52,438 bases of DNA from the NCBI GenBank assembly GCA_948943595.1, contig CARBBL010000001.1, forward strand, positions 1-52,438, read 5' to 3'. A model generated the notes under the pieces. That model saw only the letters and a program-made list of their open reading frames with translations, did no database searches and was not told the DNA's origin. The stretch is from an uncultured Lachnospiraceae bacterium (lineage in GTDB: Bacteria; Bacillota; Clostridia; Lachnospirales; Lachnospiraceae). A program made the translations under genes and the position numbers. Shown here piece by piece: positions 1,040 to 47,995 of the stretch. Within the stretch, counting starts at the first letter, position 1, and each line of letters opens with the position of its first letter.

Positions 1040-1180
1040 GTTAATCCCCCATGCCGCCTTTGGCGGCTCAAATAGAAATGAAAAACGCAGTTTTTTGCGT
1101 TTTTCTTGTGTGAAAAAAGTCTGCATAGCAGACTTAATAGTTCTTAGGCAGTGTCTTTTGCTGCCTTAGAACTATTTTTC
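1040..1180. repeat. mosaic intergenic repeat locus R1 (modules E-F-D-G: SD-bearing hairpin, terminator-like hairpin, gtctgcatagcagac hairpin, 16-bp-stem hairpin)
   Basis: It shares near-identical segments with 11925-12141, 8374-8615 and 44620-44729 (cccccatgccgcctttggcggctcaaat; aaaaacgcNNtcttttgcgttttt; aaaaagtctgcNNNgcagactt). Confidence 0.75.
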
Positions 1181-1334
1181 GCATTATCGTCCTCCATATA
1201 TTTCATATATACTAAGTAAATGTCTAAAAACTTTATACAAACATTTGTTTGAACAAACTAGAACTAATGAATGTACATAGATATATTTGTATATAGGATA
1301 CTAAACAATGGTATATTAAGTGTTTTTATGTTTT

Positions 1335-2261
1335 TTAGGGGAAATTGATATATCCTTGAAGCCATACAACTCCTTTAAAGCGTCTTCCTATGACAGCTTC
1401 TCCGTATAGATCTTCTTTATTGATACATACATGCAATGTCAGTTCATTACATTCTACAGTCATAAAGATTACTTCCTCTGCCGTGATACGGTTTTTGTCA
1501 GTATACATTTGTGTAATTTCACCTAAGATGGAGTATTGGTCACATTCCACACCATAAGGCATAAAGTAGGTGTCTACTAGACTAAAGACATCTGCATTGT
1601 GAATTTTTCGTGATATCATTGTATAGGTATCCATGTCCTCAAGAGTAAGGCTTTCTATAGCAGCTTCATCCCCTTGCCTAGCCTGGGCAATCAAGCGATT
1701 TCTTTCGTTAGATGCCTTCCGAATACGCTCTTTTTCATGCTCATTTTTAATAATTGGCATCATAATGGTTCCTTCCACAGACAAAGCACTTAAAATAAGT
1801 GATGTGCCTTGTATAGGGAGTTGATTTTGAGCTTTAAATCGGATATAAGGTATCATATTTTGCAGATAAAAAATGAGAGAAACACCAACTTTGAGGTCGT
1901 CGCATACGCCTGCGTAGGATTCTTTTTCGGCCTGTCGTTCTATAGAGATATCTTCATGTGAGCTGATGGTATTTCCACGCAAATACGGAAAATAATATTC
2001 ATATACAAATTTATTGTTTTCTTCAAATTCGCCACGTATGCAAATACCTGCGCCATGAACAAAATCAAGAAATAATTCTGCATAAACTTTATTTTTTTCA
2101 TCTGCCGCAATGTCTCTTATCGCTGTGTAAGCCTCCGCTTCTGTATTTGTCTCATCAGGAGAGCGCAGTAAAGTATGTTCTACTACTTCGTTAATCAGCT
2201 CTTGTAACTGTTGTCTTTTTTCTATCTTGCTAAAACCTATGGCCTTTAAATATTTGTGCAC
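1335..2261 (-). CDS. conserved hypothetical protein (resembles the DUF3881 family often found near serS in Clostridia)
   Basis: A 308-aa ORF starting MHKYLKAIGFS. The family assignment is from memory only. Confidence 0.6.
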   Translation of the reverse strand: MHKYLKAIGFSKIEKRQQLQELINEVVEHTLLRSPDETNTEAEAYTAIRDIAADEKNKVYAELFLDFVHGAGICIRGEFEENNKFVYEYYFPYLRGNTISSHEDISIERQAEKESYAGVCDDLKVGVSLIFYLQNMIPYIRFKAQNQLPIQGTSLILSALSVEGTIMMPIIKNEHEKERIRKASNERNRLIAQARQGDEAAIESLTLEDMDTYTMISRKIHNADVFSLVDTYFMPYGVECDQYSILGEITQMYTDKNRITAEEVIFMTVECNELTLHVCINKEDLYGEAVIGRRFKGVVWLQGYINFP

Positions 2262-2294
2262 TCTAAACCATGCCTTTCTGTCTAGTTGCGGAAT

Positions 2295-3572
2295 CTAGCT
2301 AATAATGGCTTTACCGCCCATATATGGTTGTAATACGCTTGGTATTGCTATAAAGCCGTCTTCACGCAAATTATTTTCCAAAAATGCGATCAACATTCGT
2401 GGAGGTGCTACCACAGTATTGTTTAATGTGTGGGCAAAATATTTGCCTTCATCTGCATTTACTCGAATTTTCAATCTTCTGGCTTGGGCGTCACCAAGAT
2501 TAGAACAGCTTCCAACTTCAAAATATTTTTTTTGTCGTGGAGACCATGCTTCGATATCAACAGATTTTACTTTTAAATCAGCTAAATCGCCTGAGCAGCA
2601 CTCTAAAGTGCGTACTGGAATGTCAAGACTTCTAAATAAGTCAACAGTATTTTGCCATAATTTATCAAACCACATAGGAGATTCTTCAGGTTTGCATACA
2701 ACAATCATTTCTTGTTTTTCAAATTGATGTATACGATAAACGCCACGTTCTTCTAGACCATGAGCGCCTTTTTCTTTTCGGAAGCATGGCGAATAACTTG
2801 TAAGAGTTTTTGGAAGTTCTGCTTCAGGAATAATGGTATCAATAAATTTTCCAATCATAGAATGTTCGCTTGTACCAATTAAATATAAATCTTCACCTTC
2901 GATTTTGTACATCATAGCGTCCATCTCGTCAAAACTCATAACGCCCGTGACAACATTGCTTCTAATCATAAAAGGAGGTACACAGTAAGTAAATCCTCTA
3001 TCAATCATAAAATCACGTGCATAAGAGATGACCGCAGAGTGAAGTCTTGCAATGTCACCCATCAAATAATAGAAACCATTTCCAGCGACTTTTCTGGCAC
3101 TATCAAGATCAATGCCACGAAGACGGAGCATAATATCAGTGTGATATGGAATCTCAAAATTAGGAACAACAGGTTCACCATAACGTTGAACTTCTACGTT
3201 TTCAGTATCATTTTTTCCAATTGGAACACTAGGATCAATTATGTTTGGGATTGTCATCATAATTTTGGTGACTTTATCGCTCAATTCCTTTTCTTTTTCT
3301 GCAAGTTCTTCAAGTGTTTTAGCCTGTGCATTAACTTGCAATTTGACAGCTTCCGCTTCCTCTTTTTTGCCCTGTCCCATTAAAGCGCCAATTTGTTTGG
3401 ATAATTTATTTCTTTCTGCGCGCAAAGAATCTGCTTCTTGTTGAGTCTTTCTAGCTTGCGCGTCTAATTCAATAACTTCATCGACAAGAGGAAGTTTGTG
3501 ATCCTGAAATTTCTTTTTTATATTTTCCTTGACTACAGTTGGGTTTTCTCTCAAAAATTTGATATCAATCAT
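2295..3572 (-). CDS. serS: seryl-tRNA synthetase
   Basis: The N-terminus MIDIKFLRENP, a coiled-coil arm and a class II core are present. The ATG at 3572 follows AAAGGAGA by 7 nt. Confidence 0.95.
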   Translation of the reverse strand: MIDIKFLRENPTVVKENIKKKFQDHKLPLVDEVIELDAQARKTQQEADSLRAERNKLSKQIGALMGQGKKEEAEAVKLQVNAQAKTLEELAEKEKELSDKVTKIMMTIPNIIDPSVPIGKNDTENVEVQRYGEPVVPNFEIPYHTDIMLRLRGIDLDSARKVAGNGFYYLMGDIARLHSAVISYARDFMIDRGFTYCVPPFMIRSNVVTGVMSFDEMDAMMYKIEGEDLYLIGTSEHSMIGKFIDTIIPEAELPKTLTSYSPCFRKEKGAHGLEERGVYRIHQFEKQEMIVVCKPEESPMWFDKLWQNTVDLFRSLDIPVRTLECCSGDLADLKVKSVDIEAWSPRQKKYFEVGSCSNLGDAQARRLKIRVNADEGKYFAHTLNNTVVAPPRMLIAFLENNLREDGFIAIPSVLQPYMGGKAIIS

Positions 3573-46298: not shown

Positions 46299-46480
46299 GG
46301 AATACCTCTATCGTTTGTTTTATTATATATATTTTTGGTATCTTTGTATTGTTTTTTGTGTATGATAAAATTGTGACAAGTAATATGTAAATTCGTTATG
46401 CACAAAAAACATAGCTAAAAAGGTTGCTTTTGAATTTTGTGACCTGTGTTTTATGCTTATCTTGAGTTTGTGAGTACAGT

Positions 46481-46518
46481 TTTAAAAAACAGCCTACCAC
46501 AGTACTGCGCGGTAGGCT
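46481..46518 (-). terminator. terminator hairpin overlapping the last codons of 46494..47759 (acagcctacc...ggtaggctgt + T6 on the minus strand)
   Basis: A 10-bp stem is followed by tttttt. Confidence 0.55.
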
Positions 46519-47759
46519 GTATCCCCTTTTTGATAAAGATCTGTCAATACTAAAGAAGCCTCATTGTAATATAGAACATAGTCTTTTCCGTATATTGTAT
46601 AAATATCATTCTCACGCAACAATGCAAGTTGTGATTCTGATAAGTTCTCTGTCGTGTAGATTGGAAGCAACTGTACGACAATATCAGAACAACTGCTTTG
46701 CTTAGCGTAGCCAGTCAGAGTATGAACAGCACTTTTACACCATCCATCTACACTGTCAATATAAGGAAAACGAATTTCTTTGTTTGCTAACTCATAATAG
46801 CGAAACTGCTCCATACTGTTTAGTGGATAATTGCGTAAGGATACAATACAAATAGGGCCTTGGCATTGCATGACAGCGGCTGGATAAATATGTTGTTCAT
46901 TGCGGTCATAGAGTTGATAGGTGTACACTGTCTGATTGCCCCCTAGAGTGCGCATAAATCCATCATAGCTAGTAAGATGCCCTTCTGTATACTGGTGAGC
47001 GATCAGAGAGTCTGCCAAATAGTCTATGACAAAGGCATTTTTAATCGAAAAGAAATCGAGAAATCGTACAAAACCAATTTCCTGTGCATAGGCTAGATAA
47101 TTGTCTGATATATATAATCGAATGGAATTGTCTCCCAAAAGTTCTAGGTTAATATCGGATGGATTGTTGGCAAATGCGGCAATCTGAGCAAAGTACTGGG
47201 CGACCTCGCTACTCTGATAAGGGTCATATGAGACCGTTTCCGAATCATCCTTACAAGAAAATAGATTTTCATACTCTGCATAGATGGGACCTAAATATAG
47301 TAAACGGCTTTTGTGGCGTTGTAAGACTTCAAAAGCGCGATACAACACAGGGTCCACGTCTATGATCTCATTGGGATGTGCATTGATAAAACAAATGTTG
47401 TGCACTCCATCAAAAGTTTGTGTAGGATGAAACAATTGGTGCGCATTGACTGTTAATTGTGTGTATAGTGCCACAATGGCCTTGTGCTCGGCAGTTGAGG
47501 AGAGTTGTCCTGCACCGAGATTATACTGAAATGAAAATTCACTGCTACAGTTTGTCTGCGCAGAAGAGGAAACTTCAATTGCTTGCCAACCAGAATCGAC
47601 ACGAAAATAGGCCATCAAAGAGTATGCAAACGCCAGAGCACCTATTGCTACAAAGAAAATAACCGCACAAAGTCTCCATTTGGGAAAGCACTCCGATAAT
47701 GCAATTTTTTGAACGGGTTTCGGGGAATCTGGCGTTCGATTTCCAACCATGCGACTCAC
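46494..47759 (-). CDS. membrane-anchored ApbE-like FAD:protein FMN transferase family protein (tentative); GTG start and SD lie inside repeat module A
   Basis: It has DFFSIKNAFVID (compare DxGGIAKGYAxD) and LTSYDGF (compare TSGDYE), plus an N-terminal TM. GGGAG-TTAAT-GTG at 47757-47770. Confidence 0.5.
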   Translation of the reverse strand: MSRMVGNRTPDSPKPVQKIALSECFPKWRLCAVIFFVAIGALAFAYSLMAYFRVDSGWQAIEVSSSAQTNCSSEFSFQYNLGAGQLSSTAEHKAIVALYTQLTVNAHQLFHPTQTFDGVHNICFINAHPNEIIDVDPVLYRAFEVLQRHKSRLLYLGPIYAEYENLFSCKDDSETVSYDPYQSSEVAQYFAQIAAFANNPSDINLELLGDNSIRLYISDNYLAYAQEIGFVRFLDFFSIKNAFVIDYLADSLIAHQYTEGHLTSYDGFMRTLGGNQTVYTYQLYDRNEQHIYPAAVMQCQGPICIVSLRNYPLNSMEQFRYYELANKEIRFPYIDSVDGWCKSAVHTLTGYAKQSSCSDIVVQLLPIYTTENLSESQLALLRENDIYTIYGKDYVLYYNEASLVLTDLYQKGDTAYRAVLW

Positions 47760-47995
47760 ATTAACTCCCATCTGCCTGCTAAAGCAGGCACTCTAATCAG
47801 GATGCGTGAAATTTTATATTTCACGCTAACTCCCATCTGCCTGCTAAAGCAGGCACTCCAATCCAGATGAAAAACGCCTACTATGCAGACTTAGTACTTC
47901 TCCACGAAACAGCCTTTGCTGTGAGTGGAAACTGCCACAGGCAGCTAGAAGTACTTCTCACACTAACTCCCATGTCGCGGCTTCGCGAAATCTCG
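47760..47995. repeat. mosaic repeat locus R11 (A-B-A, D/C, E')
   Basis: taactcccatctgcctgctaaagcaggcac occurs twice, with cgtgaaattttatatttcacg and agaagtacttctcacac. Confidence 0.8.

Follow-up and report, generated by a model that had tools for sequence, protein, structure and literature searches.

A mosaic family of hairpin repeats in Lachnospiraceae carries a Shine–Dalgarno and start-codon cassette that abuts gene starts

Lachnospiraceae are among the most abundant bacteria of the gut, and to our knowledge their non-coding DNA is almost unstudied. We analysed a stretch of 52,438 nucleotides from an uncultured Lachnospiraceae bacterium (GenBank assembly GCA_948943595.1, contig CARBBL010000001.1, positions 1 to 52,438; hereafter the window), which contains a family of short, hairpin-rich intergenic repeats assembled from recurring modules labelled A to G. 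One kind of module, present in the two variants A and E, is a Shine–Dalgarno and start-codon cassette that directly abuts gene starts. We consider it probable, though by no means certain, that the elements are interspersed mosaic repeats of the Lachnospiraceae, similar to BIME, BOX and MIRU elements, which are transcribed together with genes and donate translation-start signals to them. An earlier note on this DNA, made from the letters alone, had drawn attention to the repeats; it overlooked both their sense orientation and the start cassette, the latter being their most informative feature.

The recurring intergenic repeats are real, and family members were found at all twelve loci that the earlier note had listed. 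Eleven of these hold modules by profile and covariance-model scans, and the twelfth is a 29-nt fragment at 31147–31175. The core of module A (GGCAGATGGGAGTTAGNGTGA) occurs 13 times in the window with up to three mismatches, compared with 0.00 copies expected from dinucleotide-preserving shuffles, and an 18-mer of module C occurs five times, compared with 0.06 expected. A repeat search of the window recovered multi-copy direct and inverted families over the listed loci, and Tandem Repeats Finder placed a 65-nt tandem array of 3.6 copies at 44357–44594. Family sequence makes up about 1.7 kb, or 3.3%, of the window. It does not fill almost every intergenic gap, as had been claimed: 10 of the 29 gaps of at least 40 nt are occupied, or 11 if the 29-nt fragment is counted. 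The picture of a modular, dispersed and hairpin-rich intergenic system holds, with an internal tandem module, (B-A)n, that is variable and other modules in a fixed order.

When all loci are turned the same way, modules A and E prove to be of one kind, a GC-rich hairpin followed by a Shine–Dalgarno-like GGGAG or GGAGG and a GTG or ATG; the proposed division into seven separate modules therefore fails for these two. The 5′ part of the shared module consists of (C)CUGAUUUG, 3–4 variable bases and a 5–7-bp GC-rich hairpin with a 3–4-nt loop, and its 3′ part of A(G/C)AUGGGAG or AUGGAGG followed by UUAG-N-GUGA. Module A itself reads CAUCCUGAUUUG, a 6-bp GC-rich hairpin, then CAGAUGGGAGUUAG-N-GUGAAA, the hairpin being a short, imperfect GC-rich palindrome (GCCYGC-N4-GCRGGC). 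A set of 160 distinct A units, drawn from 28 genomes, shows conservation above 90% in the single-stranded flanks CAUCCUGAUUUG and CAGAUGGGAGUUAG and covariation at one pair of the stem, which is C-G in 86 sequences and U-A in 53. RNAalifold predicted only the GC hairpin and gave no support for a lower stem formed by CAUC/GAUG or CUGAUUU/GAGUUAG. The GTGA at the 3′ end of the A module is invariant.

The modules found after A (B, C, D or G) are all hairpins, each with a 5′ arm that opens with GUGA and a 3′ arm that closes with UCAC, and the modules are joined at these GTGA/TCAC motifs. Such GTGA...TCAC termini, extending up to GTGTGAAAAA/TTTTTCACAC, surround modules B, D and the pair G-D, and the ends of whole elements are ragged and truncated. 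In module B, the closing pair covaries. The palindromic modules had been thought to carry their loops in both orientations, which is true of module D, where ATA and TAT occur within identical flanks. Read in element orientation, the D loop is ATA in 18 copies and TAT in two across all genomes, both TAT copies lying in the window. For module B, the two forms tataaaat and attttata reflect whole elements on opposite strands and no flip of the loop.

Module C, which exists in a 70-nt form and in a 54-nt form that lacks one hairpin, is modelled as a conserved three-way junction with compensatory changes. A covariance model was made from four long copies in the window and gave 48 matches. In the resulting alignment, which is fitted to the model, 90.7% of the cells are paired, compared with 82.5% in shuffles and 32–49% in slid controls, and both sides change in 17 of 25 pairs. 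Module F looks like a terminator hairpin and was called terminator-like by a terminator scan. At the level of a whole element, a 391-nt sequence folds with a z-score of −8.8 and beats its own shuffles on either strand.

The modules are strung together in one direction. Composite elements are uniformly oriented in 186 of 191 cases and mixed in the other five, and the module order runs from (B-A)n through C or G, D, F and E to the gene. Recurrent strings are BA, BABA, BAC, BAGDFE, CDFE and FE; the (B-A)n arrays, with n = 1–5, stand between or before other modules, and the tandem periods are 61–66 nt. Counted against the flanking genes, orientation shows a strong sense bias. Between co-directional genes, 90% of the modules are sense, with sense to antisense ratios of 123:14 for A, 30:10 for C, 17:3 for F, 15:2 for E and 12:1 for G. 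Gap occupancy was 30% for co-directional, 32% for divergent and 25% for convergent gaps, in a sample biased by the fact that each locus had been fetched for holding an element.

The position of the elements relative to translation starts depends on the module with which they end. Of the 84 elements that terminate in A or E, 39 have the start of the downstream gene no more than 10 nt away, compared with one of the 26 that terminate in C, D, G or B. In 25 of 216 copies, the GTG or ATG of the module opens a reading frame 100 aa or longer. ATG takes the place of GTG in 6 of 23 gene-fused copies and in 5 of 186 internal ones (odds ratio 12.8, p = 3e-4). At cheR (27804..28607, minus strand), the start codon is GTG 28607 of the last A module, and the first CheR residues, ITDSEF..., belong to the CheR_N domain. 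Modules of type E stand directly before ATG 44730, where the GGAGG of the module is immediately upstream, and before GTG 1039 and ATG 11923, and an A module overlaps the start of the open reading frame (ORF) 46494..47771. Because ATGGAGG is also the usual ribosome-binding context of window genes that have no repeat upstream, the module bears the ribosome-binding signal that is normal for this organism.

The start of ORF 581..1126 (minus strand) illustrates a side effect of this arrangement. Gene callers place it at ATG 1126, inside the loop of a D module (GTCTGC-TAT-GCAGAC), and a more plausible start than this is the in-frame GTG 1039, which comes after the GGGGGA of module E. The family may be a source of systematic errors in start-codon annotation.

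The family had been called genome-specific, which it is not. The exact 21-mer core of module A occurs in at least 117 stretches from at least 27 other species-representative genomes; all the matches listed are from Lachnospiraceae. Among the same matches, the carriers include mouse-gut metagenome-assembled genomes (MAGs), Acetatifactor, Roseburia sp., the isolate Parablautia intestinalis D8-82 and IMSAGC_011. The local GC content of the fetched carrier loci spans 38–56% (27 genomes). Modules A and B occur throughout the carriers and the full C–G set mainly in low-GC relatives; modules C, E, F and G recur in loci fetched by the A core alone. In one genome, MGBC139783, the 273 kb that were sampled contain 99 A modules or more. 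In the three closest relatives by MnmG, no member was found in the equivalent region, 22 kb in each; the nearest MnmG proteins of other organisms are only 83–84% identical. The only additional copy seen within the species is an F-E string on a MAG contig, where it precedes a flavin reductase gene. A phage or plasmid origin was considered and rejected, the 21-mer having no match in viral contigs and a 381-nt element no blastn match in plasmids. Likewise, no known RNA family accounts for the repeats: nothing in the window reached an Rfam gathering threshold, the matches at E ≤ 1 overlap no repeat locus, and only chance-level matches appeared at E ≤ 1 or ≤ 10. The core sequences were in no paper found and a keyword search returned no description of the family, in keeping with the earlier statement that it is undescribed for this lineage.

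Near-identical strains differ in unit copy number and in module content. The 65-nt unit is present in three or four copies among assemblies of the same species. At the 44.4-kb locus, a strain that is 99.2% identical in the flanks carries about 140 nt more, a D-E-G-D block lying between modules C and F, on a short contig that starts inside module C and could be a chimeric assembly. Module E is where several contigs start, at position 44698 of the window. On a related MAG contig, synteny breaks inside the element at 38653..38830, at position 38768, where the contig joins an F-E copy that precedes a flavin reductase gene absent from the window. Retention was also seen: an A module is kept at the same junction downstream of rfbC in two species whose flanking genes are only about 72% identical. 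The polymorphisms found comprise unit copy number and one block of whole modules only. No pair of filled and empty sites was found at nucleotide resolution, the same-species contigs being 99–100% identical and the nearest species having no family member in the region.

On the reading that we favour, the position of a module within an element would determine how its start codon is presented. An A module inside an element would have its start codon enclosed in the 5′ arm of the hairpin that comes next (B, C, D or G). An A or E module at the 3′ end would have a free start codon and would give the downstream gene its ribosome-binding site and often its start codon too. The elements would be transcribed within 5′ leaders and intercistronic spacers, where stable RNA hairpins could stabilise, process or attenuate transcripts. 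They probably originated as non-autonomous selfish repeats, and a ribosome-binding site and start codon of their own would let them sit at gene starts at little cost, as has been proposed for MIRUs. Change would proceed by tandem duplication and deletion and by recombination at the level of modules.

Several observations weigh against this reading. The density of the family is uneven, and a further 15.6 kb of the same genome beyond the ends of the window contains no member. Element boundaries show neither target-site duplications nor clear terminal inverted repeats, and no transposase-like family is among the recurrent families of 647 clustered neighbouring ORFs, which comprise ABC transporters, response regulators, histidine kinases, MATE transporters, chemoreceptors and similar proteins; mobility is thus conjectural. 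About 10% of the copies are antisense, some of them in convergent gaps, where a role as ribosome-binding site is impossible. The sense bias is inseparable from a replication-strand bias as judged by GC skew, because almost every flanking gene is on what is inferred to be the leading strand and only two informative copies adjoin lagging-strand genes. In module C, G-U pairs exceed A-C mismatches only mildly (43 compared with 28 in an independent MAFFT count), and the A stem has no such excess, so that selection on the hairpins could act on DNA instead of RNA. Exact matching to the A core was how the loci were gathered, which makes that core look more conserved than it is. Finally, what the sequences demonstrate is the family itself, the order and biased orientation of its modules, their placement beside gene starts, covariation in their structures and differences among strains and species; from these patterns we infer transcription, an effect on expression and the mechanism of spread.

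The same patterns could be produced by purely selfish DNA of the MITE (miniature transposable element with inverted repeats) or REP/RAYT (IS200/IS605-like) type, moved in trans as single-stranded hairpins. The orientation bias would then follow the replication strand, and the resemblance to a Shine–Dalgarno sequence and start codon would let insertions survive without any host function. Much of the anatomy suits this explanation, which we regard as unlikely but credible. Conservation is higher in the motifs flanking the hairpins than in the stems, as a recognition site for a transposase would lead one to expect; B, D and G-D have inverted GTGA...TCAC termini; G-U and A-C mismatches are near balance in the A stem; the loop flip of module D is typical of DNA-hairpin events; and module content differs among strains, within a patchy distribution that leaves out the 22 kb inspected in each of the three closest MnmG relatives. 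A GTAG 5′ of the hairpin also points this way and is confined to the 44.4-kb array; other copies have GAGT, GTAC or GAGA there, in alignment columns that are only 40–50% conserved. Against it, neither a target duplication nor a transposase was found, the viral and plasmid collections gave no matches, and adjacent hairpins are co-oriented, unlike the alternating ones of BIMEs and REPINs. Also against it are the enrichment of ATG at gene-fused copies, the retention of an A module at one operon junction in two species and the fact that only A and E ends abut gene starts, which together indicate that the host uses the modules.

Host use could alternatively take the form of a regulon signal, in which the motifs around the A hairpin bind a trans-acting CsrA-like protein or small RNA that co-regulates the translation of many genes, with tandem arrays acting as sponges or multi-site leaders. 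The conservation of the CAUCCUGAUUUG/CAGAUGGGAGUUAG flanks across local GC contents of 38–56% while the stem covaries, the overlap of conserved motifs with the Shine–Dalgarno sequence, E variants with A-N-GGA beside the hairpin, and arrays in long 5′ leaders downstream of promoter-like sites would all fit such a signal. It is nonetheless improbable: the GGA stands beside the hairpin and outside its loop, the genes downstream have no functional relation to one another, antisense copies and copies at the 3′ ends of genes occur, and the core conservation is partly an artefact of locus collection. More improbable still is a mechanism in the style of leader peptides, in which mini-ORFs coupled at GTGA pass ribosomes along the array, past terminator F and on to the gene, as in a MIRU or an attenuator. 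The 65-nt array of the window has exactly this layout, with ORFs 44396–44464, 44461–44529, 44526–44594 and 44591–44701 overlapping at GTGA and the last of them reading through F to stop 28 nt before ATG 44730. As a general rule, the coupled chain is largely refuted by the tandem periods, which are 64 nt (35), 63 nt (12) and 65 nt (11), with only 13 of 62 fitting the required 2 modulo 3, and by the finding that 9 of 216 module ORFs stop in the next RTGA; the peptide sequences are, moreover, unconserved.

A bolder version of the reading that we prefer, interspersed repeats that donate translation-start signals, would add a dedicated trans-acting factor. The presence of conserved single-stranded motifs suggests that some factor reads them, and the family could consist of portable translation-start cassettes recognised by a start-codon-targeting transposase or recombinase or by an RNA-binding regulator. 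We hold this extension to be speculative and rather unlikely. If it were true, one short element would do two things in major gut commensals: it would spread to gene starts, and it would determine how hundreds of genes are translated.

The family has practical consequences as well. A high-copy mosaic repeat that occupies about 3% of the window breaks short-read assemblies and MAGs, and several contigs begin or end inside elements. For annotation, start codons are open to mis-calling, as at ORF 581..1126. Should experiments confirm that ribosome-binding sites and start codons are donated to unrelated genes, the modules would be natural, reusable expression parts for organisms that are hard to engineer.

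The window that carries these elements has a GC content of 37% and encodes, for the most part on its minus strand, serS, parA/parB, rsmG, mnmG, a chemotaxis operon and opp transporters; exact protein matches were found in mouse-gut Lachnospiraceae assemblies, for example GCA_949051565.1. The first element, G-D-F-E at 1041..1182 (minus strand), comprises the G hairpin with its 16-bp stem (1135–1182), the D hairpin with the flipped TAT loop (1108–1136), the terminator-like F hairpin (1067–1105) and the E hairpin with GGGGGA (1041–1073), after which GTG 1039 is in frame with ORF 581..1126. Its G-D-F-E string is 93% identical to that of a longer minus-strand element at 11931..12185, (hairpin+AGATGGGAG)-B-A-G-D-F-E, in which the scans placed modules at 11931–12131 and ATG 11923 after E opens a short, possibly disrupted ORF. 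Here ORFs 11756..11956 and 11459..11707 look like one disrupted gene downstream of the E module. Between these two elements lie C(short)-A′-C(long)-...-C(short)-D at 8381..8615 and B-A-C(short) at 9039..9156, the latter followed by an E-like hairpin at 9004–9038 (both minus strand). The former is inside a 2.2-kb stretch without convincing genes, and AT-rich stretches of this size and kind lie next to parA at 7615–9809 and 10563–12771.

Single C modules on the minus strand occupy a divergent gap at 13552..13620, in degenerate form (36.1 bits, E 5.8e-9), and a convergent gap at 16392..16446, in short form (27.7 bits), where the module overlaps the 3′ end of ORF 16430..17389. Two diverged A modules with a B-like 3′ arm before them lie at 28604..28712 (minus strand), the last of them carrying the GTG at 28607 that starts cheR. 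Just upstream of these A modules, between mnmG and cheR, a separate tandem repeat with a 54-nt unit is present in 2.1 copies at 28758–28869, and a metagenome contig of the same species (L124) lacks exactly one such unit. The chemotaxis operon itself (cheR, cheB, cheY, cheA, cheW and a chemoreceptor gene) is origin-proximal and lies between mnmG and rsmG at 20060–31061; in relatives (L126–L128), rsmG (gidB) directly follows mnmG.

The 29-nt fragment at 31147..31175 (plus strand) is the 3′ end of a module C, identical to 33774–33802 and antisense to its flanking genes. The element that contains 33774–33802, A-C(long)-C(short) at 33681..33893 (plus strand), is likewise antisense to both neighbouring minus-strand genes; its scan-placed modules span 33681–33859 and are followed by a terminator-like hairpin at 33866–33893. 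Repeat elements thus stand on both sides of the gene at 31178–33643 (minus strand) for an 821-aa protein, whose sole precomputed Pfam match is MVP_shoulder (major vault protein shoulder domain) and which has no NCBIfam match. A convergent gap holds (partial A)-B-A-B-E at 38653..38830 (plus strand; scan-placed modules 38682–38815). The largest element, A-(B-A)x3-C-F-E at 44359..44729 (plus strand; scan-placed modules 44359–44731), includes the 65-nt array at 44357–44594, module C at 44591–44658, the terminator-like F at 44664–44702 and E at 44696–44729, and a promoter-like site at 44187–44214 belongs to the same locus. The last element is E′-C-D′-A-B-A at 47756..47984 (minus strand), whose final A overlaps the start of ORF 46494..47771; ATG 47771, GTG 47759 and ATG 47751 are all in frame with this ORF.

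The window also contains other repeats. A 128-nt inverted pair, 98% identical and unrelated to the family, lies at 7740–7867 (plus strand) and 21458–21585 (minus strand). The copy at 7740–7867 has a sub-threshold match to the Rfam Clostridiales-1 RNA (30.5 bits compared with a gathering threshold of 48, E = 0.0077), and the pair may represent a diverged Clostridiales-1 candidate small RNA in two copies. An 85-nt direct pair, 76% identical and also outside the mosaic family, includes the hairpin CTATGAAAGTCGAAGACTTTCATAG; one copy precedes parB and the other is at the 5′ end of ORF 16430..17389 (5764–5848 and 17281–17365), and no Rfam match was found for the pair. At the end of the window, a tandem repeat with an 80-nt unit (52267–52438, at least 2.2 copies) runs off the edge in the spacer before an opp-like permease gene. 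This spacer measures 117 nt in assembly L139 and 366 nt in L140, so that the copy number of the unit seems to vary between assemblies. The neighbouring OppD-like and OppF-like ATPases (48011–51160, minus strand) are long, at 608 and 436 aa, and their best NCBIfam matches, below curated cut-offs, are the minimal Mycoplasma genome models MMSYN1_0167 and MMSYN1_0168.

Several known classes of repeat can be set beside the Lachnospiraceae elements. A CRISPR array was rejected, as the units run head to tail without unique spacers, and so were integron attC sites, as housekeeping genes (serS, mnmG, the che operon and opp) flank the elements. The Correia elements of Neisseria and the bcr1 MITEs of the Bacillus cereus group are small, structured repeats of high copy number, which are transcribed along with genes and carry expression signals to them. 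They are, however, single units with clear terminal inverted repeats and target duplications, whereas neither was found here and the modules form a directional string. REP and BIME elements are closer in construction, being mosaics of GC-rich palindromes and conserved linker motifs between the genes of operons. In BIMEs, the REPs alternate in orientation and are tied to RAYT transposases; the modules described here are co-oriented (186/191), and no RAYT gene was seen among the neighbouring ORFs. REP and BIME hairpins can stabilise or attenuate transcripts (PMC3049150).

The earlier comparison with the pneumococcal BOX and RUP elements stands for the modular, hairpin-rich logic, which resembles both BOX and BIME, and falls for the distribution among gaps. 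The likeness to BOX is one of logic only: both are composite, strongly folded and intergenic, with a variable internal tandem module and a copy number that varies between strains (PMC3049150). BOX, RUP and SPRITE are over-represented between convergent genes and regarded as dormant parasites (PMC3049150), whereas the present family shows no enrichment in convergent gaps, a 90% sense bias and fusion to gene starts. It also differs in host family, has more types of module and is common to many genera.

The closest functional analogue is the mycobacterial MIRU. MIRUs are reported to insert at start codons with a 4-nt overlap, their internal ORF being coupled to the gene (PMC12548453). The two share short, direct tandem units (62–65 nt here) that lie in intergenic spacers and are co-oriented with genes, as well as placement at start codons with an RTGA junction, where translation signals of their own would make insertion nearly neutral (PMC12548453). 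Their hosts belong to different phyla and their sequences have no known relation. The family described here is a mosaic of at least six hairpin modules, its coupled ORFs are confined to a minority of arrays, and the Lachnospiraceae element supplies the Shine–Dalgarno sequence and start codon itself. What sets the family apart among small interspersed mosaic repeats is its strictly directional modules, its conservation across many genera and its apparent donation of translation-start signals. If confirmed, the family would be a Firmicutes counterpart of the start-codon strategy of MIRUs.

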